DNA of 64,000 nt, from positions 11,148,184-11,212,183 of the forward strand of contig OZ316895.1 in NCBI GenBank assembly GCA_973895155.1. Reading direction: 5' to 3'. The notes below the pieces were generated by a model. The model saw only the letters and a list, made by a program, of their open reading frames with translations. It was not told where the DNA came from and did no database searches. Made by a program: the position numbers and the translations under genes. Below are positions 2,350-38,983 of the stretch, one piece after another. Source of the stretch: Marsupella aquatica. Lineage: Eukaryota > Plantae > Marchantiophyta. The number at the start of each line of letters is the position of its first letter. The first letter of the stretch is position 1.

Positions 2350-2400
2350 ACTGCTCCTGGAACCCTCATACTCATACTGATAGAGTAAGCGGTAATCACC

Positions 2401-7717: not shown

Positions 7718-7859
7718 GGCCGTCCAAACTCTGGGTGCACTTATGTCATGTATATACTTAGATCAAGTTGACTCATAAGGTTGCGTCACTTCTCTCTCTC
7801 TCTCACAGCTAAATTTATGTCGACCTTGGTGGTCACAGCGAGCCACAGTCGAGAGTGGG

Positions 7860-13177: not shown

Positions 13178-16100
13178 CTCACACTAACAATGAATGAATA
13201 GCAAACCTTACATTGATAATACTCAAACCGGAATGCAAGTTCCGATAAATTTATCAGGTTTTTGAGAGAAAGATTCAAATCTCTTTATAGGAATGTAAGA
13301 CTTGATAGGAGTTTGGTATTTTCTTTAAGATAGATGTTATTTGATCTGGCGGTCAAACTAAACTTTTATGGCCATCTCGCTCCTCCTTATATAGGGAATG
13401 CTCAGATAACCATGGTTGCTTTTTTCCACGAACCATGGTTAACTTTGCACTAACCCGGATCAGTGCGTGGTCGACCCTCAATTACGTGGTTGGGACCAAG
13501 TTACTCGCGGTTGGGACTTTGGGCAACTTTTTAAAGTTACAAATGTAAAGCCCAATGCACATATCGCTGCCTGCATTCTCGCAACAATGCAATGTCCAGA
13601 ACTGATGTTTTTTTATTTGGCACCCATTTTATCGGAGTTTGCATTGCCTTAGAAAAAAAACAGAATCGGGCTAAACAAGAAGTGTGTCACACTTCTCGGT
13701 CGGTCCAAAATCGTGTTCACAAGTGAAAAGATCCATTCTTAAATTTAGATCCCTCCCAAATAATATCACTTGCCCTGTCATGACAGCCTGCATATAGGGA
13801 CAAAAACAACAAAACATTGATCAGAATAAGCAAAGATAAAAGTGACAACACAATGTCAAGACACAACTCTCAAGGTTAATTTACCTTGTCCAAGGCAGTC
13901 ACATCTTCTTGGCGCACACGCAAATCTTCCTGCATTTCAACCTCTTCAAGCAAGATCTTCATTTGTTGATTATGTCTCATGACCTGTCCCATGAAATCTA
14001 TCCTATTGCTGTGCCTATACGGAATTTTCATGAGAGCAATATGAAAATGCTCATACATGTCTGTATCGTACTCCAATGGCAACCCACACCGCTTAATGCA
14101 ATCTTTCAAATGAATCATAAAATGAATCTTGACAGTATTGAAACTTGATTCTGCCAGACCATTGTCGTGCGCATACACATCGCTACACAACATACATCGC
14201 TTGTCACATACATCCAAACATAGTCACACTGCCACATCACAAACACAAGAGAATGGAATACAAGTGGAACTCATGTCCACACTTGTCCAAAACCCACAAT
14301 CGCCCCCCTAGCTGGGAGTAAGATCCCCTAACTCTAGCTAGCCATGAGTCCTACAAGGTTGATATATACCTTTTTAGGTATGAAGATCAGGAGGCCGGGT
14401 GCAAGTGAGCCCCATCGATCAGGGGTATTTACAAAAGACAGGAACCAGGAAACAATAACAGGAAACAGTTATTGTTACTAGGAGAATTGAAGGTAAAAAC
14501 CAAAAACATCGGACCAAAAAAAGGATTCCAAACAATCGAAATTAAAGCTCATTTGAGTCATTTTCATTAAAACTGTCTCATTCCAGAAGAAATATCCCGT
14601 CGGGTAGTCCGACCCAAATTTGCAATGATTACCATCGCCCAGTGCTGGTATCAATGAAGCGAATGGAAAGCTGGGAGGGTTTCATCGAAGAAGGAAAAAC
14701 TCAACGAAAATCTATGTAACCTCAATCGAGAAGACAATGAGCGGCTGAAAATGAGGCAATTCAAATCAACAGAGGCATGGTCATACAACAACAAAATCTG
14801 GATCTTGTTGCTAGCTTAAACCTCAAAATCCCGAAATCCATGTTTAATGCCATCGACAGGAAAACCAGACATTGGAGATTGAGCCGCCAAAATTCATTTA
14901 CTTAAAAAATGGGCGAAAACATGTCACTGAGATTACATGGGCGATGGAAATCAATGAGTATAAGTAGCGCCCGACGCTAGCTTAAAACTACAAATCCCGC
15001 CCTTCCATGTGTAACACCATGGAGAGGAAAATGGGTCGATCCAAAAAGAATTTCCTATCAAAATGGGCGAAAACATATTACCCAGATTACCAAATCCTAA
15101 CAAAACATTCAGTACTGAAGAACGGAGATGGAAAGCATCCAGCTTGAGCAGCGCTCAGCGCTAGCTTAAATATATCTGCCTAGGAACCTAATCGCCGTAG
15201 GGTTGCACTCCAAAATAACCTAAGCGACTGCGATTGGAACACCTTTTAGCTTTGTGATTGATAGTCATCATCGACTCCCGCCCTCGCCCGCTTGTAGTTT
15301 CTCTTGAATCCTAAACCCCTGAGCCGAATATAATTGGAAGAGGGAACTCGATGCTCAGCATGAGCTTGGCCAGGGACCGGAAAATTTGCATCAAGGAAGT
15401 CGACGCGCCCCAATCGCTCTTGCACCCGACATTCAATGGGCTGCTGACCATCAGCAGGAACGACTTGATGAAACGAGAACCGATCGTCAAATTTGCGTGG
15501 AGTCTGTTGGTCACCAGTCCACAAAATATTTCTCTCCCCAGGACTAATCGCCTCGTCATAAGGAAGAGAATTACGGTTCCAAAAAGTCAATGTCTCGGTC
15601 TCGGTGTCGACACAAACTGATTCGAAGGAGCTGAAGTGGCTCTCCACCGGTCGAACTCGGGAAGGACTGAAGAAGGCAAGCATCTCGTCCAACAACATTG
15701 GTTCTGTGGTGTGTCCCATGGCTCCCCAAACCCAAGAAACCCCCCTGTGCAGGTTGATTCCCGCAGGTTTCATCCTCGGCGAGGCCGTTTCCGCGGCTTA
15801 GCGGCATGGGACGCTGGTAACTTCCTTCTACTACTACTATTAACATTTTACATACATATACAAGACAGATCCTTCATCGGGTCATGAGATACGTAGCCGG
15901 CCTAATCTAGGCCTTCCCTAGTATACCCCTCCTTCTCTTTAGGTATATTTGGATTCCGCCGCCAGAATGATCCCCAATTGGCTTGGTTAAGCCGCTAAGA
16001 CCTCTCTCATCTTGACACATCCAACTCTCACTCCCTTGCTTACTTCCCTTCTCTCTGTTAGTTGATGTGGGCACTCTTCACACAAGTTGATGCGACACAC

Positions 16101-16625
16101 AAATAGCAAAATGACTCCTTCTGACTGAGTTATACCATGCACTTGCCATACAAATAGTACATCTCATACACAAGTTCTGCGAACTAAGCCGTGAGGCCAA
16201 CTCTATTCAGCTCTTAGGCATGAGGAAACATGAATATACACAAGGGTCACTATATAACTAACCGAGAGCTTCTCTTACTACTTGAACCCAGCCCTACTGG
16301 TGCAACTAAAAACTTGCTAAAGAAGAGGCCCTCGACTCCTCGCTGCCCAGGTACTTATCCTGGAAGTGGATCCGCCAATTCTTAGCAGCGTAAGCAAAAT
16401 CTATCCTACCTGTAATCCACCTAACTATAATCTACCTAAGTACAGCGAGGCAGAAGCACAAGTGTTGCTCCTACCAGTGGATCCGCAATCCCACTAATCT
16501 AAGTATCAGGGCCGTCTCCTGGTCCTGATCCTCAGCCTAAACTTGGAGATCCGAGCCCGCCCTGCCCACTCACGCCTCCTACCTCCACGTCCGCCCTTCC
16601 TAAAAGGAACGGCGCCCTTGCACCA

Positions 16626-17696
16626 TCACAACACCGGTGGTGGATCCTCAATGGACGCCCCCAACGCTTCCCCCGTAGCCACTGCCGTTGGTCCTTCCTC
16701 TGACAGATTACCTACCCCGGACCGAGTCAACTCTTCATTGGCCTGACTGGGTCCACCTTTGGCTTCGGCATCAGTATCGGCCACGGCTTCCCCGGCTATG
16801 GTTTCCTCGGCTGGCTCTAATGGTGGGTTTGCTACCACGGCTTCATCAATAGTTGTCCCGGCCTCGGCCTTGCCATCCCCACCTTCCTTGACAGGTGGAT
16901 CCATTGTCGTGACCATGCCAGAGGTTGGTGTTGGTTTTACCTCCTTGGTCACGACGGCTTGAGGAGCCGTAGTACTCCCTGACCCAGAAGGTTTCTGCTT
17001 CTTCTTCTTCTTTGGTTCGGCAGCTGGCCCCTTCCCCTTGCCACTTACCTCCGGCACCAGGGCGTGTGTCTCGGCTTCTCCTTCGGCCAGTACTACACCA
17101 GGTAACTTGGTTGCCCCAATTGGAGTTGGTCCTGAGGAAGCCAAGCACTTAAATACTGCGGCCTGTTTCTTCAGCCGCTCCATTTGGTTGTTGGCCCGCC
17201 GCTGTAAGTTCTCCATCTTCCGCGTGCTTTCCTCCAACTCCTCCTGCAATTCATCCAGGTCCTTCCTTGCCTCCTTCAGCTCCTTCTGGGCTTCTTCCAA
17301 CTCTTTCTGGGCTTCCTCCAACTCTTTCTTTAAGGTAGCCCTCTCCTCCTGGGTTGCTCTCAGCTCCTTGTCGAGCTCCGCCATGACCTCAGACTCCATT
17401 TTATTCATCTTGGCATAAGTCTGGTCGAGCTGGTCGTCTTTCTCGCGGAGGTCGGCCTTGAAGCTGGCCGTCATGGATGCAAGCTCTTGCCGCAGCACGA
17501 TAATCGCCTGATAGGATTTCCCTAACTCGGCCTCCTTCTGCTCAAGGGCTCCGCGGATATCTTCGAGTTCCCCCTTCAACGCCCTCTCCCTTCTTTGAGT
17601 CTCCGCCATGGCCCGGTTATTGGCTGCTATGTGGGCCTCCTCTGCGTCTCTCAGCTCTTGCTTCCACTTCTCCCTTTCTTTGACCGCCTCGGCCAA
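16626..17696 (-). CDS. Coiled-coil protein with low-complexity tail (C-terminal part of the TG...CA unit ORF)
   Basis: Heptad repeats KELEEAQKELEEAQKELKEARK, a poly-K stretch and an A/E/P/G-rich tail. The tail is conserved in the second copy (63688..63972). Confidence 0.55.
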   Translation of the reverse strand: MAEAVKEREKWKQELRDAEEAHIAANNRAMAETQRRERALKGELEDIRGALEQKEAELGKSYQAIIVLRQELASMTASFKADLREKDDQLDQTYAKMNKMESEVMAELDKELRATQEERATLKKELEEAQKELEEAQKELKEARKDLDELQEELEESTRKMENLQRRANNQMERLKKQAAVFKCLASSGPTPIGATKLPGVVLAEGEAETHALVPEVSGKGKGPAAEPKKKKKQKPSGSGSTTAPQAVVTKEVKPTPTSGMVTTMDPPVKEGGDGKAEAGTTIDEAVVANPPLEPAEETIAGEAVADTDAEAKGGPSQANEELTRSGVGNLSEEGPTAVATGEALGASIEDPPPVL

Positions 17697-17744
17697 CTCT
17701 CCTTGGGTCTGAGTCAGTTTATCCTTGATAATCTGATTATCAGA

Positions 17745-18287
17745 CTACGCGGTATCCAACTGCCCCTGCATGATGTTTAGCTCATGCCGTTTAATCCGTA
17801 GCTCATCTTGGGCTTTCTTGGCCGCCTTTAGGTCTTCCACCTTGGCTTCCATCTCCCTAAGCCGTCGGATGACCTTGTCCTTCTTGCTTCTCTCCAAAGC
17901 CACTGCTTCTTCTAATTGGTTCTTCTCCAATATCTCCCTCTGGAAAAAGGGTCCCTGCTCCAACTCCTCCCCAAAGATGCTGAGCGCAAGTTCCCCACAC
18001 ATCTCCCCGTACTCCATGGCTCTATCTTTAGCATAGGTGGAGTAAGAAGAAGTCATCGGCATCAACCACCTCGGCCTCTGTTCCCAAGCCGCCTTGCGGA
18101 TTTCTTCTATGGTGGCAAGAGGGTTGCTTCTTTTTTCGGCAAGCCGCCTGATGTCCTCCGGCCAATCTCTTTCTCTCTGAGTCGCTCCTAAAACTCCTGT
18201 GCCGTCTGCTTTATGCCGTCGAAGCTCGGGGGAGCAATATCTGGTGGGGAAGACTCGGGGCTGCTCTGCTGGGTTGGGTCCCCTCAA
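17745..18287 (-). pseudogene. Middle segment of the same disrupted coiled-coil ORF
   Basis: Same strand, charged helical composition running into 16626..17696. Confidence 0.45.
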
Positions 18288-18650
18288 ACTACTCTTGGAA
18301 GAGTGGGAATGAACCTGCCACAGGTCCTTATTCCTGGAACATGATGGTCCAACCCGTAGCCGGAGTCATCATTGTCGTAGCCTTCTACCGCCTCCTCCCC
18401 GGCTTGGGCTAGCGGCTCCCCCCGCTGGTGTCCTGGTCCTGCCGTGAACACAACCCCACAGATCACGGGTTCTGGTTCCTCCGACTTCCACGTTGATCTC
18501 ATCTTTTCCCTGTCGTGACCAGGGACCTCGGGCTGCTTCTCCTCGGCTTCGGGACTTGAAGCTCCTACATACATTCGGACTCCCGGCTCGTGTTCCGGCC
18601 TCCTTCTCTCCTTGGCCCCGATAAAGGGGTTTTCCCTGGTAAGTTGGCAG

Positions 18651-19257
18651 GAACCACTTTCAGGACTCAAAAACATGATTTTTTAGTGAAAAATGACTTT
18701 CGTAACATGGAAAAAGGTTCATCATGATTTTATCTCAAGACATTTAAGTCTAATTTTTTCACAAGACTATTTTACATGGTGTAACCTACCTCACCATGTA
18801 GATACATCAAGTTTTCAACTGTTTTGAGGGATCCTGTTATTGATGGCCCTAAATAAGCCAAAATTACTGATTATTTTTGTCTTGTACATAAAGATTTAGT
18901 GTGTGTCACTATTTAAGTTTTGAAATATAAGATTATGCTATTAGTATGCATGCTTTGGTAAAATTTCATTGTCTAAAATGCATTTTTTAGAGTCCTTTTG
19001 AGTCCTGAAATGATGTGACCCGTTGCGTGACAAGTCCTTTTATCAATCTTTGAAAGACATATAAGGAAAGCTTCAAAGTCTCAAATGCTAGATAGTTTAA
19101 TGAATGTTACCAACCTATAGGATGTTTATGAAGTATAGTACATCAAATTTTCTATATCATCTCATTACACCCTAAAAATGATATCCTAAAGCATAATAAA
19201 CTATGGTCACTTTTGAGTGTGACGTTCCTTTTGGGTCCTCCAATTGTGAATGAGGCC
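18651..19257. mobile_element. MITE (GGCCTCATTCACAATTGG family), left end deleted
   Basis: Near-identical to 39015-39621. The right TIR CCAATTGTGAATGAGGCC is present and the left TIR is absent. Confidence 0.88.
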
Positions 19258-19472
19258 ATCGGCAAGTCCTCCTTCCTCGGCCTAAACACCTGCTCGATTG
19301 TAGGATTGTCGGGCTAGGTCAGTTTCTCTGTTGCCGGCCTTGGTTCCGGAACCTCCTCTGGTGCTCTCACCTGTAGGGGCAGTACTGGGGTGAATATCTG
19401 GCTTTGGGCATACCGGCACAACAGCGGCATGTGATAACCAAGCCGGGACACGCTTCCCATGCCAATCACCAG

Positions 19473-20363
19473 CTATTCCTCCTTTAAGATCTTCCTCAGT
19501 TGGTTGAGGAGGTACCCGTTGTAGTCCCGGCTTGGGTCTGGCCTCTCTGCCAGGTAGACCTGTGCCTTGCCGATCTCTGCCCTCGGCAAGTTGCAATGCA
19601 TGGTCACCCGCAAGAAATTGATCATCTCTCCGATGTGCGGGTTGGTGCAGGTGTTCCGGAAGAAGCCATTCTTCGTTGATGGCCCTGGAAACAACCGGAA
19701 TTCCTTGTCTGGCAAGGTCTTCCTGGTATCAACTTTGGTCTTATTGCCCATCGGCAAGCCAAACACTTCGGCAATCACCCGAGGAGTGAGATAAAAATCC
19801 TTCCCATACACCCTTGTGGAATTGGTCTCGGGCTCCCATGATCCCAAAAATTCTAATAAGTCTGAATCCGGCACCTCCGGCTTCAGCCATGGTAATTTTA
19901 CGAAGGCTTCCAAGCCGGATCCGTCCATGAAGCCCTGGTACTTCTTGGTCTGCATGGCCGTAAAGCATGCATCCTCCTCCCGTGCAAAATGCAGTTGCAC
20001 CTCTTCTGGTAGGGTCGCCGCCCAGCCTTTCCAGGTGTCATCCTTTGTTGGAGTGGCATTGATGGGATCGACCTCCTCCTCTTCGGCTTCCGCCTGCCTC
20101 CTGCTTCCCTGCTTTGCTGGCTTCCTTGGTGCCGCCAACCTCGTTCTTTTTGCCGGGGTGGCCTCTTCGTTGTTGTTTCCTTTCCTCTTCATCTCGGCTA
20201 CCGTGGATGTTTCTCCTAGCACGGTTGCCTTTGTCCACCCCTCCGTGCTACCCTTCAACTCCCAGTGTATGTCGTTGCAGCGGTTGATGGCTTCTCGAAT
20301 GCCGACGATCTTGTTTTTGCAAAACAGAAGGTCGTCAAGCTGATTGGCAATAGGAGTCCACAA
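19473..20363 (-). CDS. Plant retroelement-associated protein (plant mobile domain / putative plant transposon protein-like)
   Basis: GLEAFVKLPW...LLEFLGSW...RVYGKDFYLTPRVIAEVFGLP resembles PMD/gypsy accessory-ORF motifs, with a basic NLS-like stretch upstream. Confidence 0.5.
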   Translation of the reverse strand: MWTPIANQLDDLLFCKNKIVGIREAINRCNDIHWELKGSTEGWTKATVLGETSTVAEMKRKGNNNEEATPAKRTRLAAPRKPAKQGSRRQAEAEEEEVDPINATPTKDDTWKGWAATLPEEVQLHFAREEDACFTAMQTKKYQGFMDGSGLEAFVKLPWLKPEVPDSDLLEFLGSWEPETNSTRVYGKDFYLTPRVIAEVFGLPMGNKTKVDTRKTLPDKEFRLFPGPSTKNGFFRNTCTNPHIGEMINFLRVTMHCNLPRAEIGKAQVYLAERPDPSRDYNGYLLNQLRKILKEE

Positions 20364-20922
20364 GAACTTGGCCTTGATGAATTCTCCTCCTAAGAAGGCA
20401 GATTTTTGCAGCTCCCACAGTCGAGCGAGCTCCTACCGTTCTCGAGCTGCTCTCTTCGATTCTTCATCCTCGTAAGTCCCAATGTACTCAGTTGCCCGTT
20501 CGAACAAGCATCCCCAAAAATGTGTTGCTTGATTGACGTTGCTCATACCCTCCTTGAGTCATTCATTGGTATTTGCTCCCGCCCAGAGTGTTTGTCTAAG
20601 CAGCTGACAATCGTTGGCCTCCCGTAGTTGTCTGCCCAGTTCGTGCTTGCAAATGAGCCACCATTCCTCACGAGCTGTCCTTACCCCTCTCCTCTTCTGG
20701 TCTTTCCTACCGTTGGTTACCCCTAGTCGCCGACACTTAGTGCGCCCTAACCCTAATCATATTCTCTCCCCCGACGTCCTTACTTCCAGCCTCGGCCCGA
20801 GTTCCATAGTCACCCTTAATTGTTTATATTTTCCTCATTCTTGTAACTATACTAAGGTGTTTCTAGGGTACACTTCCGTTTTCCCACTTAACCGGCCTAG
20901 TGATTCGTGGTTAGGCATCACA

Positions 20923-21591
20923 GAAATGATATGGTTCTGCCCAAACAAAACATGCTACAAGAGCCGCCCGCGTCGTGGTGTTGAACGCCTTCCTCTTGTG
21001 CCGGATATCTTGCCAGTTGTGAAAGGGACCAACCTCACACCTGCCAAGGTAGAGTTCCTTGAAGCACAGGGAGTCTCGATTGTCCAAACAGCTGCAAAGT
21101 CTCGCGCTGCACCTATTCCATTCAACTTGAGAATTAATGTAAATGCATTTCCTGAAAGAATCAATTTTTCCGACCCCAACGTACGCCTTTGGACCAGGAA
21201 TGGGAGAAACTCCAGACCTCGATCAAATCTAACACTGGCTCACAGTACACGAATGGAGTTGGCTCGGAAAGAAGCTATGACTCTGGATGGCGAGTGGGAT
21301 GTGGGTATTGGAATTGCATTTGGGAAGCAATTCAAAATCCGGACCCACAAGAACCTTCGATCCCCAAACACTTACTTTGTCCAAATTTGCGTCTTCCCAA
21401 CCTGTTCCTGTGAGGATTTCTTCCGTCGTCATTCTCGCGGCAAGCCATATATGCCTTGTAAACATTTGTATTGGGTGTCTATAAATGTCTTCAAGTTTCA
21501 TGTAGAGGAGTCTATCCTGTGTAGCCAGCCCATTTTCACAGTTGCGGAAGTCAGACTCGTGTTGGATAGGCAGAATGCGAATGGTTTGTAG
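20923..21591 (+). CDS. SWIM zinc-finger protein fragment
   Basis: YFVQICVFPTCSCEDF...MPCKHLYWV fits the CxCx(n)CxH SWIM signature. The part of ORF 20614 upstream of 20923 belongs to the inserted TG...CA unit. Confidence 0.75.
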   Translation, partial: EMIWFCPNKTCYKSRPRRGVERLPLVPDILPVVKGTNLTPAKVEFLEAQGVSIVQTAAKSRAAPIPFNLRINVNAFPERINFSDPNVRLWTRNGRNSRPRSNLTLAHSTRMELARKEAMTLDGEWDVGIGIAFGKQFKIRTHKNLRSPNTYFVQICVFPTCSCEDFFRRHSRGKPYMPCKHLYWVSINVFKFHVEESILCSQPIFTVAEVRLVLDRQNANGL

Positions 21592-22360
21592 AGTAACACG
21601 ATATTCTAGAGACTGTCGTTTTTCATAACGGATACTATGGTTTTTGTCTGTAGTCAACGGATATTACACTTGTTTTTTCTTTCTTTTGGTTAGCGCCTGG
21701 CGCTGGTTCCAGAACATTAATATTGTTAAATTTTGAATTTTATCTATTTATATTCATGTCGTTGTCCCTTAACTTAAACTTTTATCCCTGTTAAAGCTTT
21801 GTTAGCGCCTGGCGCTAGTTTTCACACTCTGTCCAGCTCCAATATTGCAAATTCCAGAACCCTTCTTCGCCGATCGGTTGTTTAAGCCTATAACTGGATT
21901 TAGGGTGGGTCCCACCATAAATTACTCCATCCCTGCATGGATTTTATTTTTCCTTCTCGTAGGCCGAACTGCGCTTTCTGAATTGGACTGTTCTGAAATG
22001 ATGTTGTATCTAAATAGCAGGGATATTCAATGACGACATTATTCACGTAGAACAAATGGACACTCGGTTTGGAACCTCTCTTTGCAGCTGTGACCACACC
22101 CTTGGCTTCTATCTGACCGCGTCACATTTGCCACTAACAAGACATTCAACATGATGATGCATGTGGTGGAAAATGACGTTAATTTTTGGCAAACTTAGCC
22201 AAAAAGTACACTTTTACCATAAGACTTTCCTGTTACCAATTAAGAGTTACTTGATAACAGGAATTCTGTTACCTGTTTCCTGTCACCGCTATTATACCCC
22301 ATCGATCACCTACCTGCAATCCATATCTGCCAAGAGAACACAAATGATAACTAGTCGGCT

Positions 22361-22681
22361 TCACCGACACTGAGGACACAACCATGATCCACTAGGAATC
22401 ACCTGCAATGGTGGTGTCAAACATGACATGCGCCATCCTCTAGAACACTTATCACAAATCAACATAGTAGCTGCTCCCTGAGCAGATTCACACAACATAC
22501 ATTTCAAGCCAGCACAAACATGTGCCAAGTTTGGATCTACTATATCATCAATGTTGGGAAGGTGACATGGTGCACAGTTGCGCACACGATCCTTCCAAAC
22601 CATACCATCGCATCCCTCCAACATCAGGACACCAGAAGGCAACACTTCACGCACACGTAAGATTGTCCAGCCTACAGTCAC
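22361..22681 (-). pseudogene. Integrase C-terminus with PHD finger
   Basis: CMLC...MLICDKCSRGWRMSCLTPPLQVIPSGSWLCPQC is a C4HC3 PHD with the His replaced by Arg in this copy. Confidence 0.88.
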
Positions 22682-22735
22682 ATCAAGTGTCGTGGGTGCT
22701 GTCTACTGCAAATAAACATAATCACCAGGATGAAA

Positions 22736-24172
22736 TCATCGAATGTTTGCACGGTAACCTCCTCCACGAATAGTGGCATACCTCAAAGTATCACGATGTT
22801 GGGCAATGGCAAGGTTGTCAAAAGCCATGGGCATCACTCTCTGAAATACCTGTGCCCTCTCTGAACACACCTTGACCCAAACATCAGGATCATTCACAAC
22901 TGGTGCAGCATCACGACGAATAGATGCTGGCAAATCTAGCTCTCTACCATAGAGCAAAAAATAAGGTGAGAAGGATGCAAGTGATGCTTGCCGACTGAAA
23001 CGGTAGCCCATAGCTAACCAAGGTAGCTAGAGATCCCAATCTCCCAAATGACCAACCTGCAAGCTATACTTACACAATCCTCTCTTCACAGTTTGCACAA
23101 CTCTCTCAGCTAATCCATCTGCCTCTGGATGATCACGAGAGGTAGTACGATGATCAATCAGAGCTTGTTCACACAAACTCTCAAACTCTCCACGGAACTC
23201 AGTTCCCTGATCAGTCAACACCTCAGCTGGTGCTCCAAAATGACTGAGTACACGATCCAAAAATGTAGCAGCAACTCCTCCACTAGCTTTATTGGGCAAC
23301 GCCACTAGCTCAATCCACTTGGAGAAGTGCTCCACCATGACCAAAACATACCGATTATGACGTTGGGTAAGAGGTAATGGACCAGCAAAATCCAAACTCC
23401 AACGATATCCCAAACCCATGATCGGCAACGGGTGCAACTGGGGAGTGGGAGCATTAAATGATGCTCTCACTCTATCACATACCACACACTTAGCTACCAA
23501 CTACTGGACATGAGTGTGCATACCATGCCACCAATACTGTGTCTGTAGCAAGCTATAAGTGCGCTTCACACCAAAGTGCCCCAACTCCTCGTGTGCATGT
23601 CGCACCAAATGTACTCGTTGTGATGGTTTTGGTACCACCAACACACTACCATCATGCAGTACTCTCAAAAGATGGTTTCCCTCCCATCGAAACCTCTTGG
23701 CTCTCTGTAGAACCCTGTCACGTTCTTTGGCATCAACACTGCCAACAATAGAACCACTACGCAGATATTCCAATACTCTCACATCATTGTGAATATCTTG
23801 TTGTCCAAAAGTTACCTCGCCAACATCCACATGTGAAGACTCCTCATCCACTCCATCCAATGAGGTAGAGTCCACAGATCCACTGTATGTTGGCACCCAA
23901 CAAAGAAAGGCAGATGCATGCCATCCTGGCACCATCTCCTTATCTGATTCATCATGCCATCTGGCTCCAATCTTATCCTGCTGACTGGTACATGGATTGC
24001 GGCTTAATCCATCTGCATCCAAGTTCACTTTTCCACGCCTATGCACCACCTGGAAATCATACTCCTGTAACAACAATGCCCATCGTGCAAGCTTCCCTGT
24101 AAGCTTGTCAGACTCCATTAACCACTTAAGAGGCTGATGATCAGTGATCAAGGTGAAGGGGTTACCAAACAA
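22736..24172 (-). pseudogene. Gypsy RNase H end and integrase (HHCC + DDE)
   Basis: ITDHQPLKWL...KLARWALLLQEYDF, HEELGHFG...CVVC, SLDFAGP, TDQGTEF, GLAERVVQ, SPYFLLYGR. In-frame stops are present. Confidence 0.93.
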
Positions 24173-24196
24173 GTAGCAACAAAAGTGTGCAACAGC

Positions 24197-25328
24197 CTAC
24201 ACTGCTGCCAAACACTCTCCCTCATACGAGCTATACTTAGCCTCTGTTGAATTGTTTGATCTACTGGCATAAGCCACAACAAACTCATTCCCCTCATCAT
24301 CCTTCTGAGTCAGCACTGCTCCAAGTCCTACTCCACTCCAATCAGTGTGTAGCTGAAATGGTTTGCCTGAAATGGGTCTTCTCAAAATAGGGGATGATGC
24401 CAACCTTTGCTTCAACTCCTGAAAGGGATGCTCCTGGTCATCACCCCAAATCCATTCCTGATCCAACTTAGTGAGTATGGTCAAAGGTTTAGCAAGCTGG
24501 CTAAATCCTTTAACATACATCCTGTAGTAGCTCGCCAATCCCAAGAATGCACGAACTCTACTCACATCAGTAGGACAAAGAATCTGTATAATGGCCTCCA
24601 CTTTAGTCTGCTGTACACCCAATCCCCCTGGGTATATAGTGTGGCCCAAATACTCAATCTGGTCTTGGAAGAACTTACACTTGCTAGGATGGAGCTTCAA
24701 CCCATGTGCTCTCAATCTCTCCAACACAATCTGCGAGTGTTGCTGATGTTCTTCCACGGTAGAAGAATAGACCAAAATATCATCAATATAACATCTGACA
24801 AAATCCAAACCTGCAAGGATTCGATCCATGACTCTCTGGAACTCAGTTGGTGCATTCTTCAACCCAAATGGTAAGAATAACCACTGATACAAACGATCTT
24901 TGCCAAAAGAATCAATGCCCCTGAATGTTGTCTTGGACCTGTCAGCATGCCTAATTGAAAGCTGATGGTACCCTGCCCTCAGATCCAATGAACTGAAAAC
25001 CTTTGCATGCCCCACAACATCAAAGATCTCCTCAAGTGTGGGCATGGCATATCTATCAGATTTTGTCTAGCGATTAATGGGTCTGTAATCACCACACATG
25101 CGCCTATCTATGTAATTGCCATGCACATCCTTCTTGGCTGGCATCAATCACTATGGCAGATGCATACTCCCCATATGAAATCTCCACCAATCCAGCCTCC
25201 AACAAATCTTGAATCAGAATCAGAGCTCTCTCCATGTCATTGTAACGGTATGGCCTACGAAAGATTAGCGCATCACTAGCCAATTCAATCTGAATACCAG
25301 GACCCTTTAATGTCCCCAAATCCTTCAT
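24197..25328 (-). pseudogene. Gypsy reverse transcriptase / RNase H
   Basis: FSSLDLRAGYHQ, PFGLKNAP, CYIDDILVYS, RAFLGLASYYR, TDWSGVGLGAVL, YSSYEGECLA. Confidence 0.95.
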
Positions 25329-25493
25329 GCTAAATGCTAAACAATTCCAGTAACTCTTTAGGAATCAATGCATGCAATGTCTCTCCTCCCCTGTCAACTT
25401 AGGGCCAAGTTGTGGTTCCCAACTCTCCACCAAATCCCTAATATCTCTTTGTAGGGTAGAAGAGATAGCCGATGATTGCTATTTAGCAGTAGA

Positions 25494-26762
25494 TTAAGCA
25501 GTCCCTTCCTGCTCAACAATCTGTCCAGCCTTGGCCAATCTTGCCATAGGTCCATAGGTCTGCTCGCCCCCAGTTGTGGTCAGTACTATCTCAGTGGACC
25601 GCAAGCTCACCAAGGGACAATCAGTAATTCTAGTAGAGCGCATCTTCAACTGTTTAGTTACTCCCAAGCTGATAATCCAAGTCAAACAATTCAGATCCAT
25701 TGCTTGACCAAGAACTTGGCGCCGCAAACCCTCTGACACAGAGGCAACTGCAGTGGTGCCAGTCAAAAATCCCATAGCACGCTCTCTCTCATCAGCAGTA
25801 GGCTCCACTAACTGCTGGAGAGCTATGTCCCACACAAGTCCAGGGCCACCTGCTCTGAATGCATATGAAGCAGAGTGGCTTACAAGACTGGGTAATGCAC
25901 AACGTGGGCGCCCAACTACATTGACCATTGCCAATGGAGGTCTATCAGGTTGGGTGACACCCTATGCATAACGCCCTGGATCCAAAATATCATCCACCAC
26001 TAAGGTTGGTGAGCGTGGAATGTTGTCAAATGCGCGCTTCAACACCTCACATGGGATCAAATTGGTCCACCACAAGCGTGGACGATGTGCACGAGAACCA
26101 ACATGTGCAGCATCCAATAACACAGTAGGTCCAATCCAAGACCTCACCTGGTGAACACTGGTAACAATCTGACTATGATCATCACCTAACAATGGCACAT
26201 TCTCCAAATTGTATGCTGGAGACTGTGTTTGATGTAACTGGAGATGACGCAGCACCCGTAACATCTCCCAAAACAATGCAGAGCGTGGATCATGAAGTCC
26301 ATGCCCAACGCTAGCTCTAGATTGGCCCTGACATGGCCAACCAGCAATCACCAAATCAATGGAGCCAACACGATGCAGATGATCTGCCCCCAGCAATGAA
26401 ATATCAACAGGTAGTGCATGCTGATAACCACGAACAACATCTACTGGCAGCAACTGTGGATATCTATCCACCAACATAGCCACATGTCGCAATGAGACCC
26501 TCCGTGCTATCTCATCTGTCTCCACATACAAATAACGATGCACAAGAATTCCTGCCTGAAGAACAGCAGCCAATCCAGTGCTAATCCCACCAAAAAGATC
26601 CAACAAACAAATACCCTCCAGTGGATACTGCCAAGCAATAGGAGTGGTATCCAATGGTGAAAGAGTCATAGGTCCATCTGCAAGAGACTGCTCTGCTCCT
26701 GATTGTGGTGTAAAAGCATGACGCCATGCATCATGTACCAATTGTGCTGCTGCCTGTGGCAA
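25494..26762 (-). pseudogene. C5-cytosine DNA methyltransferase (DNMT3-like) domain embedded in gypsy pol
   Basis: Motif I LDLFGGI, II YVETD, IV AGWPCQGQS, VI LENVP, VIII AHRPRLWWTN, then IX/X ERERAMGF...RRQVLGQAMD. A single in-frame TAG lies at 25962. Confidence 0.92.
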
Positions 26763-26995
26763 GGCCTATGCAGTGCCCCACACTGGTGGCACAACACTGC
26801 CAATAGGTAATCCTCACATGATGTGCTCCTCATGAGACCGGGCATGAGACTCCTCCAATGGTGGAACATCTGTTGCATGCGCATTACCCTCAATCAAATC
26901 ATCAGGTCCAGCAATTAGACCACTGAATGCTGCCAAAGACAATGGTGTGGATTTAGGGCCTCCCACAGGTCCACTAAATCTCATTGGAAATTTGC

Positions 26996-27393
26996 TCAAT
27001 CGAGCATCTCCTGATTGCCAACAGGTCTATATGACACTGATTCCTCCCAAAAATCAAGAATAAATCCCATGGGGTAGAGCACTGTACATCCCACCAACAC
27101 ATCATATGACTCTGCCTTAGTCAGAATAGCTCGCGCCTGTATTTTTGAGCTATCTGTGGTATGACCTTCATGAATCCTCAAATCAAGAGGTCTCCTGGTA
27201 ATGTGCTGTGTAGGTGTAGGTCCCCCCAATGAAGTCTGAATGGGAAAGGGACAATCCTCCAAATCCTCTAGACGCAATCCCAATCCACGTATGGCAGACT
27301 TACCCAACATCAAGGGCTGAGCACCAGTATCCAATAACACTCTCTCTGGCTGGTATATTGTCCCATAAGGCCCAACTAATCGGAAGATACCAC
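26996..27393 (-). pseudogene. Gypsy aspartic protease
   Basis: VLLDTGAQPL...YDVLVG. It is fused in frame upstream to unrelated transposase sequence at about 27394. Confidence 0.85.
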
Positions 27394-29178
27394 TCCGACC
27401 TTCTATCTCTTTCACCTGGAAAGTCTTCAAATACTCCTTGTAAGATGCAACCTCTTGAATCAATCGTGGTACATGATGAATGCTTTCACACTCCCAAACC
27501 TCAGCCATCAACCCCAAGAGGGTAGCAACCTCTTTGTATCTGACCTGTTTGGATACTTGAGAAAATAATGCATCCACATCTTCATGGGTGTGGCCAACCA
27601 TGAGGAATGACATTTGCACAGTTTCAAACACCCCCTACTAACAAGCTCAGTGCAAAATGCCATCACATACTGATCTTTCCCTGAATTGTCCATCTGCAAC
27701 GTTAGGTGCCTTGGTAAGGGCTTGAAAGAGCCCATAGTAGTCTCAGGATCATCCCTAGAACCAACATCCAGTGTGCTTGATTTTTGAGTCTCCTGACCAT
27801 CTTCAATGCCTTGAAATCGAACAATTGAAACATTTTTGGGTTCCAAGTAACCGGCCAGAAATGCTTCAAAGTCTAGAAGGGACTGAAATATTGGCCTGGT
27901 TGCATTCCAATTCAATCCTTCAAGAAGGTCTTCAGTTTTGTCTCCTGTGTAATCTTCCAAATCTCGAAGGCATTTGGCCAAAGATGTCACAGTAAAGTCT
28001 GTATCTCCAGGCCAAAATCCAGTCAAACTAAAATGTGCATACACTCCAGGATCTCTTCCATGGGTTAACATCCCAGTAAGAGCAATAGGCAGAGGCTGAC
28101 CACTACCAGAGAGGGATTTTGGAGTGGGGACCAACCTAGGAATCCAAGTCTTGGCTTGATCCATCTTATCGTGAATAATGCAAAGATAGTTTTGAGGATC
28201 CTTCTTTGCAAGAACCCTATGAGCATAATAAACATATCTTCTTGACATTTGTTCACAAAGATGTCGTGCTCTTTTCTCTTCAATCTTTGCACGCTCTTTT
28301 TTTCTCTTCTCCCGCATCAATTGATCTTTGAACTCAGTGCAAAATGTGCACTTGGCAAATGCACTTCCCTTGTGAAAGTCAAAATTATCAAATGAGTTTT
28401 TCCAGATGTTGTACATAGTAACTTCAGTAACCTTAGCAAACCCATCTAATTCCATCTTGGTAAACACCTCTTGGAAAATCTCCTTCTTAGTAAAACAAGA
28501 TGGGAGCCGATATTCAATAGTGTCGGTGCCGTTGGACCCACCATAGGGAAGATGTGGCATTGGTTCCCCATTTTGGATTATAATGGACTCCAACAAGGCG
28601 CGAGCGTGCAAAGTGCTTGATCGTGTCTTCCGTTGTCCATGATTTCCATGGAAACCAATTGTGCAACCGGCTTCGTATTGATTTTTGTAGTCATAATACT
28701 TTGTTGTACTGAACCCATGCATTTTAATAAATGCATCTTTACAAACCACACGTCCCTTTAGAACAAAAAATCCCTTTCTCTTGACTTGCTCCTCTCTACA
28801 CCCAAAGAGACTAAAGATGTGACTTGTTTTGTTGTCACTTGACATTCCATAGTATTCCCTCCTCATTGCTTCTAAATCCTCCCTAGGCATGTTCAAGCAA
28901 CACTTCAACTTGCAACAACCTTCTCTTTGGATGGAATCAATGGACTCCTCGGTAATTTTCAAAAGTACCCGTGACTCCAAATGCCTTTTCTTCTTTTCCT
29001 CAAGATCCACTTTTGTCCTCTTAATGAAATTGTATGGTCTTTTTGTAGGTTTACAATCACCATCCGAATCCGGATCGCCCTCAGTTTGACCTGACTCCAT
29101 CCACTTCGATGAAACTTCCTCAAGGATATCCCCAAGAAACCTTTGAGACGAATCAATAGAAGGGATTTGATTTCCCAC
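27394..29178 (-). pseudogene. Sola-like DDD transposase, frameshifted and 3'-truncated
   Basis: VCKDAFIKMHGFS, FAKCTFC, IIHDKMDQAK, LQMDNSGKD..YVMAFC and FLMVGHTHEDVDALFS, a pattern recalled from Sola-related eukaryotic transposases. Confidence 0.7.
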
Positions 29179-30110
29179 CTCACCAAGCCGGGGGTACCAA
29201 CACGGATATTTGGAAATAATTCAGGATCATTGATAGTCACAACAGCAACACCCACATGATCTGCACCAAGAAGCTCATCATCAACGGCACCTATTTCAAA
29301 TGGGATAGTGATAACACCTGTTGCAACCTTCCGACAACGAGAAGCGTCATACAAATCAACCTCCTCTACCATCCAGTTGGAACGTAGTGTAAAATCTTTT
29401 AATGGAAGATCATTGAATATGTCTGCGCTACCAGACACGCCAAAATCTTGTAGAGTGCCTTTTCTAGAAACATGTGCAACATCCCACATGACCCAGGTAT
29501 GCAAGGCCTCTTCTATTGTATCAGCTCCAGGGTGCGAGTAAGGCAATTTTTGATTTCCCTTAACAATATCAGATATTCATATATTGATACGACCAACACC
29601 TAGTCTTTCAGTATGACAAATATCCATCGGATTTGTCTTGAAAACGACTCCATTTGCAACCAACTCATCAAAAATGAGCATCTAAACTTCATCTCCTTCC
29701 TTGAACACCTCCTCTTCAACCCTCGCGTCAGATTTGGATTTATCATTTCCAGCATCTCTAGCCAAAGAGAAATCATCGACATTGATTCTCCGGCGAAGAG
29801 TTGATGACCTCAAGTATGCCAATGCACAATCCCAAATCACGCAGGAGTCAACTGCCTCAGCCAATGTAGAAAATTTTAGTGAAGGAAATGGAAGTTGACG
29901 CGATCCCTCAAAGCACTTTTTGATCAATACTCCAATTCGATTATCCCCGAGACAAATGTTCTGTATAGTATCCTGGGGGTCAACCTTTTGAACTATCCCA
30001 ATTGCCACTTCAAATCCTTCAATCACCAATGAAACTTCATCCCCTCGTGTAAAGTTGATCTGATGGCGGACTATCTGTATCCAAATCAAGTTAGAAATTG
30101 TTAAGTTCTT
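29175..30110 (-). pseudogene. Three tandem Tnp1/En-Spm-like (Transposase_23-type) domains upstream of the transposase
   Basis: A VAxG...LG...LP(F/Y)...T(L/I)xEA...VxWD pattern appears in ORFs 29682..30164 and 28959..29546 and the intervening frame. The third copy is partial. Confidence 0.55.
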
Positions 30111-30184
30111 GATGTTACGATCATGTTTCAAAATCAGGACTCTCCTCCAAAACATATTGTACAATCACTCAAAAACCCCAAATA

Positions 30185-30512
30185 AATTAAAGTTGGGTCG
30201 AACTTATTCCGACCCTCTGACAACAATATATCTTAAAATGATTGAATTGACTAACCATTTACAAGTCGGGTCGGAATTAGTTCGACCCTCCTCCAACAAT
30301 ATGTCTTTAAATGATTTAATTTACTAAACATTTACAAGTTGGGTCGGAATTAGTTCGACCCTCCAACAAGATGTCTTTAAATGATTTAATTTACTAAACG
30401 TTTACAAGTTGGGTCAGAATTAGTTCGACCCTCCTCCAACAAGATGTCTTTAAATGATTTAATTTACTAAACATTTACAAGTTGGGTCGGAATTAGTTCG
30501 ACCCTGCTCCAA
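30185..30512. repeat. Tandem repeat, 70-73-bp unit, about 5 copies, each with a GGGTCG(G)A...TCGACCC hairpin
   Basis: ATGTCTTTAAATGATTTAATTTACTAAACATTTACAAGTTGGGTCGGAATTAGTTCGACCC at 30301, 30371 and 30444, with degenerate copies upstream. Confidence 0.85.
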
Positions 30513-32456
30513 CTATTGGGTTGAAATTATCTCAAAACTATTTGTAGAACTATCTTGCTTGTGCTTGTATATACCAAATTAAAACGCTAGTCAAGATAAC
30601 ATAGTCAAGTCGGCACGAAATAATTCCGACCCACTTCTAGAAACTATGTTAGTAATCACACAAAGGGGTACAATAAGTTCTACACATGCTAGAGTGTGGA
30701 TAAAGGTCTAGATGGGTAGAATATATGATCTAGAGCCTAATGTGTAAATATTAATCTAGGTTTGGCTCAAAGGTATTACATTTGATTCAGATAAAATTGA
30801 GCTACTACTTCTAAGATAAATAAATAAAACCACTAACCTGCTCCACAAAATATATTTGCCCACCCTTGTACAAGCTGAATGGGTACCTAGCATGCCAGCA
30901 TTGTAACTCTTAGCACCATAGTGCTCACCAGTGCCCTTACTAAACCATGCATTCAACCATGTGGACCTAAACAAGGCACTGACTCGAACAGAGGAGAGTC
31001 AGTGACCGTACCAAGCATTATCTAAATGATAATGAACCAAAAAATGGATTGTGGGAGATCTATACTCACTTTTGAGAGGCAAAAAGCCAGCACATTACCC
31101 AACACACAAGTGGACACCAACAGATCAGGCACGGGTGGATCACGCACACACCCAGCACACAAGGTGGATAACGGAGAGATCAGCCGATCAGTCACAAGTG
31201 ATAGGTGAGTTGCGAGCGCACACCGCTGACAGCTTGCCAGTTGAAAGTTTAAATCGGACCTGAGATCAAGCGTGTCAGTGGTAGGTGAGTTGCGCGTTGT
31301 CGTACATCCATAGGTGAGTTGTGAGTGGTTAGATGCAGCGTTAGCGCGCATTGATGGCTTTGTACGTACATCTTCAATCCTTCCATTGCCTCCTCGCTCG
31401 AAGGGGGTATAGGAAGGCAGGCCTTGTGCTTGAGGCCTCATTTCCTTGCCTCCCTTTTCCCTCCTCTTTTTCCTCCTCTCTGGGCTCCTCTCTTGTCTCC
31501 TCACTCCCTGCCTCACTCTTGCCTCGCTCTTGGGCTCTTGTTTCCGCCTCGCTCTTGGGCTTTTGTTTTTGCCTCGCTCTTGGGCGTTTGTTTGCGCCTT
31601 GCTCCCTTCCTTTTTGGGTCGCTCACCCAGTCATTGTTTGCCTGGCCTGTTGGTTCCCTCTTAGTGCCCTCTTGTAGCCTGTGGCCTTCTCCTTTGCTGC
31701 CATGTGTCATTTTAAATCTCACCCGTCCGTTACAATGTCTACTTCCTCTAGTTCTAGAGCTTCCACCACCTCTGCCAATTCTGGAGAGTCATTGAACTTC
31801 AATTATAACTCTGTGTATAATATGACCCCGAAGACCCAGATGTCCAAAAATTGGTTAACAATGCGTTGGAGGCGTCAAAGAAAGCCCAATTAACTTTTCC
31901 ACGTAAGGCACCACCTACTTCAACTTCTTGCCTCGCCCTTAGGGCGAGGCAACTTTACTTTAATTTGGATTCCTCAATAGGAAAGTTTTCTATATTACTT
32001 TTGCAACCGCCTCGCCCCGAGGTTGAGGCGACATCTACTTCATTCTAGATTTCTTGTTGCTCCAAGGGCGTAATGGACGTTGTCTCTTACTTTAATCAAG
32101 GATCTTTAGCTATATTCCATTTTGTGCCTCGCTCTCAGGGCGAGCCAATCTCTATTTCATTATGGAAACTTTAGTTATATTCTATTTGTTGCCTCGCCCC
32201 AAGGGTGAGGCGATGTCGTATGCATTCCTAATATTTGATTGTTTGGATGGGGTGGCCGGGCTAATATCACCAATAGCAAAGAAGCTTTTGCAAAATATTC
32301 CATATTCAATGTTAAAAATATGATGTTGACCATTTTGTTTTCAATGTTTCTTATCAGGAAAAAATCTTGAGAAGCCGGAGTTAAATATAGGATATCAAGG
32401 ACTTTGTTTTCCCTGGCCAAGATACTCCATGATTTAGATGGGCACTAGAAGTTGGG

Positions 32457-33893
32457 GTGTCGGCGGAAGGCAGTCTCTTGATTTCTTTCAAGGGCCTCAC
32501 AAGTCAATCATTGAATGACTGCAAGACAATTGTTACTCTAGGTCCAGTCGTCCTTGTGAACACAGACAACAACCGCAATGCAACAATTATTGTTGAGTCC
32601 AGTGAGAAACCCCAGTGGATGAAACTTCTTGTGCCAATAAAACTCTACTCAACTTTACTTAATGTTGAGTGGAAGGCTCGATTGGAGATAAGCGTAGCTG
32701 ATATGGGATTCTTCCCGGATGGGGTAACAATTGATCAGATGTTTGAGAAGACTCGTTCTCAAATAAGTGGAGTTGACCTGGTGTTCGGATTTCTATATGT
32801 AAAGAAGCACATGCATGACAATCCAGACAGTGTGGACCCTCCATCTACTTGGAGAGTTCAAAGGATGATTGAGAAGGCACATTTCTCATATGAGCAGGCA
32901 ATCGACAAGAGTTTCATTTTTTGTCCAGAGTTTCAAGAGGCCGCATGCCGGACGTGGATTTCAGAGATGAAGAAAAAAGAAGCAAAGCATAAGGCAAAAG
33001 AGAGAAAGAAGACAGTGGAAAGAAGTGCACAATCAAAGACAGAGAAGAAACGGAAGCTTCTAGAGCCAGTTGTGCAAGAAGAGAAACAATCTGGGACTTC
33101 ATGCCGTAAGAAGATGGCTTCAAAAAAGGATGACGATGAGGGTCCAAAGAAAAAGCAGACAAAGAAGGCAAAGGTTGCAAGATCAAAACCAATGCGAGCG
33201 TCGACATCAAACTTTGTCTTGCATCCAGAGGATGATAGGTGTCCAACAGAAGGACCCAAAGAAGATGATGTGCTCAAAGGCCAAGAAGTTTTGCATAATA
33301 TTGAGCAATATTATACTTTTGGCATCCGCAAAATTTTTGATATTCCTGTCAAAAGTATTATTCCGCCATCGGCCATTTTTGTATATCGAATGTTCAATCA
33401 TTCGCATGCAATGGAGATATCCAAGTCTATGATGAAAAACCCTGGACAAGAACCACAAGTTGCTGATTTGATTTCGTATCGCGAGAGCACTCAACAGTTG
33501 CTTCATTATGACAACACACCTCAAGATAGGAAAGAGTTTTTGATTGGTGTGAAGAAGCAGGAGATCCAATTCCTTGCCATCAGTGGCCAGCATTCTGCAA
33601 GAGCTGCCCAATGGATCCAAGGGTGGGCCGACACTGATGCCAAGTTGACAGATCTAGCCAACAAACTAAAGTATAGGAAAGCAAGGATCCTATCTGACCT
33701 CACTTCGAAGACAATTTTGGTTGAGCATTCAAGTTTATCGAACGCTGTGAATAATACTATGCAATTTAAGTCTTGTTTTTTAGAGACTATTGTTCATGCA
33801 AGAAGGCAATTTGAGGAGTGCGGGAAACCGCCACGTCCAGGGATTGGGACCAATCAAAATACAGACAGGAAAAACTATCACATATATTTTTGA
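32457..33893 (+). CDS. TE cargo protein exon with ParB/Srx-like motif
   Basis: 478-aa ORF with a K-rich linker, then FDIPVKSII...YRMFN...FLAISGQHSARA resembling the ParB-like GxHR motif. Confidence 0.55.
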   Translation: MSAEGSLLISFKGLTSQSLNDCKTIVTLGPVVLVNTDNNRNATIIVESSEKPQWMKLLVPIKLYSTLLNVEWKARLEISVADMGFFPDGVTIDQMFEKTRSQISGVDLVFGFLYVKKHMHDNPDSVDPPSTWRVQRMIEKAHFSYEQAIDKSFIFCPEFQEAACRTWISEMKKKEAKHKAKERKKTVERSAQSKTEKKRKLLEPVVQEEKQSGTSCRKKMASKKDDDEGPKKKQTKKAKVARSKPMRASTSNFVLHPEDDRCPTEGPKEDDVLKGQEVLHNIEQYYTFGIRKIFDIPVKSIIPPSAIFVYRMFNHSHAMEISKSMMKNPGQEPQVADLISYRESTQQLLHYDNTPQDRKEFLIGVKKQEIQFLAISGQHSARAAQWIQGWADTDAKLTDLANKLKYRKARILSDLTSKTILVEHSSLSNAVNNTMQFKSCFLETIVHARRQFEECGKPPRPGIGTNQNTDRKNYHIYF

Positions 33894-34261
33894 GCAAGGC
33901 AATCTATTCTTGATTCCCTTTGATTAAAGATTGGGGTAGAGGTTTGCCTCACCCTTAGGGCGAGGCTACCTTGTCTTGTTTTCCTTGGTTAGAATATTAA
34001 AGCAAATGCTTGCCTTGCCCTGAGGGCGAGGCAACCTTGACTAGTCTCTCTAAGAATATTGCTTGAGTTCCATTTCTGTCAATTGCGGTTGGATGTAGAA
34101 GTTTGCCTTGCCCTTAGGGCGAAGCGGCCTAGCCCGTTTCAAACATCTAGATATAAACTTTCTACCATATGCATTGTACCCTAAAACTAATGTCAAGTCC
34201 ATTGGATATGCAGAATTGGGTTTCCCTGGCAAAGGTCACAATGGGGAAGTCAAACCTGAAG

Positions 34262-36483: not shown

Positions 36484-36827
36484 CCTTTTCTTTGGTTCTT
36501 GGTATTTTAATGACAATCTAAGCTTTATCTTTGTAATAATATACTTTTTTACAGACCAAAGTTGCGTCGTAGAATCTCCTTCCTCAAATGATTTTAATGG
36601 CATTCCCTCGGAAAGCGTTGCTGTGGAGGAAGGGTTTGACCCAGGTATACCTTGGATCTAAAAAATAGCAAATTTTGAATGTAATTGTTTTTCTAGGAGG
36701 GTCGCCCCAGGGTCGTTCCTCTCTCCTTCAAATGTTATAACAAAGTTTGTTTGATTTCAAATTTTGAGATCTTTCCTTGATAGTAATTGTTTAAACTTTG
36801 AGTCACATTGACTAAGGGATTATTTTA

Positions 36828-38981: not shown

Positions 38982-38983
38982 TG

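Follow-up and report, generated by a model that had tools for sequence, protein, structure and literature searches.

Whether a retrotransposon can carry its own DNA methyltransferase together with a chromatin reader, and how the two would be deployed, is the question raised by a 64,000-nucleotide stretch of the liverwort Marsupella aquatica (contig OZ316895.1, positions 11,148,184 to 11,212,183; hereafter the window), where a Gypsy element encodes a DNMT3-like C5 cytosine methyltransferase (DNMT) and an integrase ending in a PHD finger. An initial annotation of the window pictured a self-contained writer-plus-reader retroelement and expected a single open frame across the family running from protease (PR) through DNMT, reverse transcriptase (RT), RNase H (RH) and integrase (IN) to the PHD finger. 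The family is not one open frame: a conserved readthrough-type stop codon separates the DNMT from RT, integrase and PHD, and this leaky-type stop, with protease processing, argues against a single writer-reader protein. The kind of element is already known from KnitGypsy-Dnmt3 of the alga Klebsormidium nitens; a liverwort and moss family with a conserved stop of this type is new.

Relatives were recovered from 71 metagenome loci by an alignment query, an earlier scan with a single DNMT having returned none; 46 of these loci run from the last part of the DNMT into RT, and 12 extend as far as the PHD finger. Of the 46, 45 have a stop codon at the equivalent position and in the RT frame (33 TAG, 12 TAA; L059 has no stop), and in 43 of the 45 it is followed by CAR-YY, the exceptions (L041, L058) reading directly into a second stop codon. 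Exact CAR-YYA follows in seven loci (L008, L061, L062, L045, L047, L046, L067) as well as in the window, such that the window and four divergent lineages (L008/L061/L062, L045/L047, L046, L067), with DNMTs 49–67% identical where measured, carry the full UAG-CAR-YYA. A control set of 710 decay stops inside aligned domains contains CAR-YY after 12 and CAR-YYA after none. Codon 2 after the stop encodes S, P or L across the exact-motif copies with YYA constant; as YYA is kept while the amino acid changes, the signal resides in the nucleotides. For the window's own family, four runs list no variant at or above 3% over 25473–25481, while the stop at 25496, five codons upstream, differs in all depth and is particular to the window copy. 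The L045 frame of 7.25 kb is open apart from one stop, the conserved one (5083). Database proteins divide at the same place: 45 end as PR-DNMT and 29 consist of RT-RH-IN-PHD, many homologues ending 75–160 residues past motif X, and the closest protein, P0001 (84%), terminating exactly at the window stop, 25481. The TAA cases are dispersed over a FastTree phylogeny (8 changes), in line with the background rate of G-to-A change after A (mean 15%), and owing to this scatter and match TAG is taken as ancestral, with TAA looking like decay; the comparison of TAA with TAG did not separate readthrough from splicing. No stimulatory RNA structure 3′ of the stop is supported: z-scores for five sequences lie between −1.1 and −1.8, and the covariation term over six is +0.2.

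In tobamoviruses UAG-CAR-YYA constitutes the type I readthrough motif, and leaky stop contexts yield ∼0.3–5% readthrough (PMC3542737), while leaky gag-pol stops have been called rare, with CARYYA cited (PMC3441728). The window family shares with tobamoviruses the nine-base signal and, as predicted, the division into an abundant product and a polymerase-bearing extension (PMC3542737); it differs in being a retrotransposon and in placing the stop after protease and DNMT rather than after gag. Readthrough is very probably the route to Pol, with Gag-PR-DNMT as the likely abundant product and RT-RH-IN-PHD as its minor readthrough extension.

Judged from the relatives compared, the DNMT is a standard part of a high-copy bryophyte Gypsy family and not a one-off capture. 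Summed depth of public contigs on the window, which is not a copy number, reaches 166,000–308,000 in the DNMT bins of run X1, 233,000–256,000 in RT and 180,000 in the PHD bin, falling to ∼900 just outside; runs X2 and X3 give the same depth shape from PHD to protease, and X5 covers it thinly. A protein search returned 65 matches among 2,547 candidates, 27 with a species name (20 Marchantia polymorpha, 2 Calypogeia fissa, 2 Sphagnum, 2 Closterium, 1 Tetraselmis), which places such elements in land plants. In a FastTree phylogeny of retro-DNMTs and phage outgroups only, the window DNMT falls together with Marchantia, Calypogeia and Sphagnum rows in a group of 23 rows (support 99), a placement that points to a likely bryophyte host, the outgroup being phage-type C5 methyltransferases from viral contigs (28–50% identity), which were the only viral matches. 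A profile search gave 542 clusters (50% identity) at E up to 1e-30; three that were looked up have named members only from Calypogeia, Coleochaete and one cyanobacterium-labelled metagenome record. One RT-RH-IN-PHD protein of the family, P0377, is filed under uncultured cyanobacterium and is probably a mislabelled eukaryotic contig in a metagenome. Two layouts exist across the family, with the DNMT either after the protease, as in the window's branch, or between RNase H and integrase; the latter (P0051, P0052, P0196–P0229 and relatives, with a partial Volvox match) forms its own 51-row DNMT clade with Cymbomonas among the named rows. The domain has changed its position inside the polyprotein, and the range of the family seems to include chlorophytes.

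The DNMT itself is intronless, lies inside the Gypsy coding region without termini of its own, and has all the motifs that had been reported for it, in canonical DNMT3-like, unpermuted order on the minus strand (I LDLFGG 26603, II YVETD 26528, IV GWPCQG 26342, VI LENV 26207, VIII RPRLWW 26084, IX ERERAMGF 25790, X LGQAMD 25712). Its best Protein Data Bank (PDB) sequence match is DNMT3A (E 3e-10), other methyltransferases being listed at 7e-4, and DNMT3A, 3C and 3B make up 29 of the 32 matches. A predicted model of the L008 domain (pLDDT 84.7) has DNMT3A as its top fold match (E 9.6e-19, TM 0.69, 21% identity), and the retro-DNMT fold is, as modelled, a complete DNMT3 catalytic domain. GWPCQ, the motif VI glutamate and the motif VIII RxR are invariant or nearly so in a 15-row alignment. 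The ratio of non-synonymous to synonymous substitution (dN/dS), which the initial annotation had proposed to measure, is 0.11–0.20 in 10 between-lineage pairs, the ratios being rough with most dS values above 1.2 and near saturation; the L045/L047 pair, at dS 0.25, gives 0.14, and the DNMT pattern matches that of RT and integrase. These values point to purifying selection between lineages, a conclusion that we hold as nearly certain jointly with the domain order, the termini, the family-wide presence, the intact catalytic motifs and the family-wide conservation of the stop and its context.

The integrase ends in a PHD finger where chromoviruses would have a chromodomain, as had been noted; no chromodomain match was found in the window element with Pfam, the integrase C-terminus bearing a PHD finger only. 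Top PDB matches of the finger include CHD4, PHF12, PHF21A, KAT6A, ATXR5, KDM5 PHD1, UHRF1 and BAZ2, and it is a C4HC3 finger without the K4me3 cage tryptophan, a Trp two residues before the His being present in 0 of 113 PHD homologues. PHD fingers such as those of CHD4, PHF21A, ATXR5, KDM5 PHD1, UHRF1 and BAZ2 are readers of unmodified H3, and Trp at that position marks K4me3 readers. Recognition of histone H3 unmethylated at K4 (H3K4me0) is slightly favoured by these features. Integrase-PHD relatives include Coleochaete, Klebsormidium, Haematococcus, Volvox and Chromochloris, and in a FastTree integrase phylogeny of 64 chosen rows, rather than all integrase matches, a K. nitens IN-PHD protein shares the window's broad group (38 rows, support 91). 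PHD fingers in retrotransposons have been called widespread (PMC6673714), and for this reason the novelty initially assigned to a PHD-bearing element was too high.

A mechanism uniting these features is modestly favoured as a whole, in which a leaky stop provides many DNMTs per copying enzyme, complementary DNA (cDNA) is methylated, and integration is steered by PHD. ORF1 would supply Gag, protease and DNMT in bulk, Gag-level DNMT amounts following from any leaky stop, and readthrough of a few percent would add RT, RNase H and integrase-PHD. Release of polyprotein parts by the protease is general in Ty3/Gypsy elements, and here would free DNMT and integrase as separate proteins, with many DNMT copies trapped per particle. 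The enzyme would then methylate new cDNA before insertion, a step for which the chances appear evenly balanced, and the PHD finger would direct integrase to H3K4-unmethylated nucleosomes, away from H3K4me3 promoters. A likely benefit would be that a copy methylated beforehand is taken for host DNA, or that it settles away from promoters in a quiet, heritable state.

Several observations weigh against this account, in addition to the near-saturated dS. DNMT dN/dS is 0.42–0.95 in five close pairs, with RT and IN behaving alike, and this is consistent with post-insertion decay. The stop count includes 38 of 46 loci from one family, several being the same copy in two assemblies, with only ∼7 independent lineages behind it; the largest family has CAA-CCC, which departs from the full motif at one base and is directly followed by ATG, and distant relatives (P0195, P0081, P0160, P0194) lack a stop there. 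A further 24 proteins, plus partials, have the order RT-RH-DNMT-IN-PHD, and since both stop-free relatives and this layout exist, a Gag-level DNMT is not required for its role. The ratio of observed to expected CpG is 0.32 in the window element, 0.28–0.69 in relatives and 0.38–0.54 in other window elements, a depletion that is uninformative because it cannot tell methylation by the element from methylation by the host. In yeast, no methylation was obtained with the isolated KnitGypsy-Dnmt3 domain, a result called inconclusive as human DNMT3B also failed (PMC5890265).

A targeted writer-reader, with the DNMT kept in the integration complex or present as an uncleaved readthrough fusion and methylating both the new insertion and its flanks at PHD-chosen sites, would mimic the ADD-plus-catalytic design of animal DNMT3, the ADD of DNMT3A being an unmodified-H3 reader, and the retrotransposon PHD resembles such readers. 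Across the green lineage both layouts combine DNMT with PHD, one of them placing the DNMT beside integrase, and readthrough products would hold both domains; most DNMT of the window's family would, however, be made without PHD, and RT and RNase H lie between the two, at a distance of ∼1,000 residues, in a polyprotein with its own protease, making this arrangement unlikely. With a conserved stop and protease processing, writer and reader are probably separate mature proteins in unequal amounts, their functions probably both kept but split by molecule, amount and time.

Pol might be reached by another route, the TAG serving as a splice acceptor that excises the DNMT region, for which the intron of Ogre elements is a precedent, or translation restarting at a start codon further downstream. 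The TAG is compatible with a YAG acceptor and looks ancestral, the largest family has its ATG six bases after the stop, and some Marchantia and Sphagnum gene models (P0009, P0010, P0021, P0048) skip the stop, although they do so at differing junctions. The window, L008, L045, L046, L047 and L067 lack this ATG, undamaged copies have the stop in the reading frame shared by both ORFs, and YYA at +4 to +6 is kept despite amino acid change, so that this route is distinctly unlikely. A DNMT fold that does not methylate cDNA, acting as a nucleic-acid-binding part of the particle, a decoy poisoning host DNMT3 complexes or an RNA enzyme, would suit Gag-level amounts, the inactivity of the Klebsormidium domain in yeast and the presence of an exact PCQ string in only 74 of 114 DNMT rows; it is rendered improbable by the (near-)invariant catalytic residues, the predicted complete fold and the CG methylation by related SymbioDIRS-Dnmt3 enzymes in yeast (PMC5890265). 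That the window copy alone captured a host DNMT3 or DRM fragment, since decaying neutrally, has a negligible chance: this copy is strongly decayed and sits amid nested insertions, but the DNMT has the same position in 46 loci and in the named bryophyte proteins, depth is even over the element, between-lineage dN/dS is low, introns and own termini are lacking, and a DRM origin is excluded by the unpermuted motifs.

Among known systems, KnitGypsy-Dnmt3 is closest, being likewise a Gypsy element whose DNMT3-like domain is intronless, unpermuted and subject to purifying selection, and having DIRS-like repeats that are matched by the A...B-A-B repeats of the window element's relatives (PMC5890265). 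Its DNMT is placed in the Pol ORF (PMC5890265), whereas that of the window family closes ORF1 before the readthrough-type stop, and the window family occurs in liverworts and mosses at high copy number. The main text of PMC5890265 contains the term PHD 0 times, and its available text mentions no stop for KnitGypsy-Dnmt3, although its Fig. 4c may show either. SymbioDIRS-Dnmt3 and SymbioLINE-Dnmt of Symbiodinium are also retrotransposon-borne C5 methyltransferases for which cDNA self-methylation was proposed (PMC5890265); unlike the window family they belong to other retrotransposon orders, are independent captures and, in the available text, have no integrase-PHD. Chromatin-reader modules on Gypsy elements are shared with chromoviruses, the green-algal PHD elements REM1 (known from citation only) and Gypsy-7a_cRei (PMC9940879), and EpiLTRs; relative to chromoviruses, the window family has no chromodomain and has its PHD joined to the C-terminal end of integrase. 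In EpiLTRs, too, methyltransferases occur alongside a reader, but the EpiLTR DNMTs are sister to DNMT4 and accompanied by an adenine methylase (10.64898/2026.05.21.726589); the same preprint names ‘streptophytes (Gypsy-DNMT3)’, with bryophytes, Marchantia and readthrough unmentioned in its available text. In the portions available, PMC6317226 contains no PHD, methyltransferase or Marchantia, and PMC10952607, PMC8616336 and 10.1101/2024.01.08.574619 contain nothing on the window family; a literature search that left most subscription papers outside found no paper describing a Gypsy-DNMT3 family in land plants or its stop.

The copy in the window has the Gypsy order Gag-PR-RT-RH-IN, with domains called by six-frame translation and Pfam (Table 1), which confirms a C5 methyltransferase between protease and RT on the same strand. 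The domains do lie at 22361..27393, where the initial annotation had put the feature, within an element that is far larger, as its ends and gag fragment indicate.

Table 1. Coordinates of the Gypsy-DNMT3 element, its coding features and its nested insertions in the window.
Feature	Position	Strand	Remarks
Whole Gypsy-DNMT3 element, three nested insertions included	14163..41532	-	starts TGTCA, ends CACGACA
5′ target-site duplication ATGG	41533..41536	-	flank is Plavaka transposase
3′ target-site duplication ATGG	14159..14162	-	flank continues transposase-like frame
5′ terminal region (A) plus 5′ leader, without a fixed inner boundary	39622..41532	-	no second copy within window
MITE-like nested insertion, terminal inverted repeats, CATT duplication	38984..39621		not a long terminal repeat (LTR)
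gag N-terminal part, truncated by 10.9-kb insertion	38337..38882	-	59% identical to Marchantia Mp_4g09160 residues 1–173
10.9-kb nested block, starts CACTAT, DUF7869 transposase	27398..38336		broken transposase end abuts protease
Aspartic protease, LLDTGA 27337–27320	27023..27397	-	Asp_protease_2 E 0.0026, below its cut-off
DNMT3-like C5 cytosine methyltransferase domain, motifs I–X unpermuted	25641..26639	-	DNA_methylase E 1.5e-9
Conserved in-frame stop TAG CAA TCA, closing ORF1 (Gag-PR-DNMT)	25473..25481	-	readthrough-type context
Reverse transcriptase, continuing the DNMT frame beyond the conserved stop; YIDD 24790	24635..25478	-	RVT_1 E 6.3e-32
RNase H	24059..24448	-	domain match
Integrase: HHCC zinc finger, catalytic core, C-terminal region	22520..23626	-	rve E 6.6e-15
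PHD finger, C-terminus of integrase	22367..22501	-	PHD E 3e-9
7.9-kb nested insertion in 3′ untranslated region (UTR), ends GGGGTA..TACCCC	14422..22300		8-bp duplication TGATCGAT
Polypurine-tract-like AGGGGGG, short hairpin-like motif before it	14303..14309	-	kept in divergent relatives
3′ terminal B repeat, single copy in window	14163..14299	-	homologous to B of A...B-A-B split repeats in related loci

The element ends TG..CA and is flanked on both sides by ATGG, the string ATGG+TGTCA being found once in the window; the 5′ end is placed at 41532 on the basis of this duplication and the TGTCA start, the A region having no similarity to the A repeats of related loci, while the B end is 68–76% identical to theirs. 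Without insertions the copy measures 7,906 bp, plus ∼1.3 kb of deleted gag-PR linker, near the 9,127 bp between the target duplications of the full relative L036. Four-bp duplications also flank L036 (AAGG) and L025 (TCTC), and L044 and L011 match at 4 bp. Repeat pairs of 307–342 bp (86–94% identity) in L007, L025 and L036 are arranged as split repeats, A...B-A-B with 4-bp duplications in L025 and L036, with B-A-B in L012 and L043; the window copy keeps only A...B, and no terminal repeat pair is left within the window. A 611-bp repeat (18648/39012) considered as an LTR pair was rejected, being the MITE. No tRNA-complementary primer-binding site was evident by eye, no tRNA set having been compared. 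The element is inserted into a Plavaka transposase, which Pfam matches on the 5′ flank (41533–43600, minus strand, E 2e-24); the 3′ flank (13700–14162) has no Pfam match and is presumably transposase, from a motif that we take to be diagnostic. A 3′ UTR motif, GATGGGG..GCACCCGGCC, stands at 14400–14420 (minus strand) in the window, at 8355 in L045, 7939 in L046 and about 10120 in L036, and is shared, like the hairpin-like motif before the purine tract, by elements whose DNMTs are only ∼50% identical; a priming or packaging signal for a split-repeat life cycle is possible.

The window copy is dead, as had been noted, with 12 in-frame stops over 22364–27020, one of them inside the DNMT domain (25964–25962), and frameshifts near 27021 and 25143; the stop at 25481–25479, which had been counted with this decay, is a feature of the family. 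Its PHD finger has Arg in place of a zinc-binding His that is kept in 112 of 112 homologous PHD matches. At the junction of the 10.9-kb block and the protease ∼440 codons of the gag-PR linker are absent, public family contigs diverging from the window sequence at 27398, and family sequence stops near 22300 after PHD to pick up again at 14421, across the 7.9-kb insertion. A second, partial copy of the MITE-like insertion lies at 18648–19258 (94%).

The 10.9-kb CACTA-like block contains a NIF phosphatase ORF (36816–37562, E 1e-14) and the ORF 34862–35530 (plus strand), which, like 59846–60325 (minus strand), has a weak N6/N4 DNA methylase match (PF01555, E 1e-3 and 3e-4, below cut-off); the block may be a DNA transposon with an amino-methyltransferase. 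An N4 methylase was gained horizontally in Marchantia (PMC10952607). In the 7.9-kb insertion, a 1.1-kb segment (15704–16787) recurs at 62766–63849 (89%), which suggests a further nested element. The insertion also has a 327-codon ORF (20608–21591, plus strand) without a Pfam match, whose CxC..CxH pattern we take to be SWIM-like. Elsewhere in the window are a xyloglucan fucosyltransferase fragment (1–717, plus strand, E 2e-17), which accords with a streptophyte host, a Copia element (2034–8162, plus strand) with a 304-bp LTR pair at 95% identity, a LINE RT (56759–59173, plus strand), and at 46482–48349 (plus strand) a BRCT ORF and, after it, an ORF encoding tandem NSD-like PHD fingers, a host gene or transposon cargo, downstream of which long ORFs without Pfam matches extend to 53380.

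Carriage of a silencing enzyme by retrotransposons has been a puzzle since 2018, with Symbiodinium and Klebsormidium as awkward hosts and a Gypsy enzyme that gave no signal; close relatives in Marchantia polymorpha, represented by its 20 named proteins, bring the question into a genetic model, where a leaky stop predicts much DNMT, little RT and integrase, and an enzyme acting in the particle. Automatic ‘DNA methyltransferase’ gene models of Marchantia, Calypogeia and Sphagnum include transposon ORFs. In its widest and most tentative form, which we consider doubtful as a whole, an old and very large green-lineage Gypsy clade would survive in land plants, its streptophyte branch loading particles with a de novo methyltransferase at capsid-level amounts via a leaky stop of the plant-virus type; new copies would arise already methylated, the PHD would guide them to H3K4-unmethylated chromatin, and enzyme in excess, made by many Marchantia and Sphagnum copies, may write a part of the bryophyte methylome that is credited to host DNMT3.

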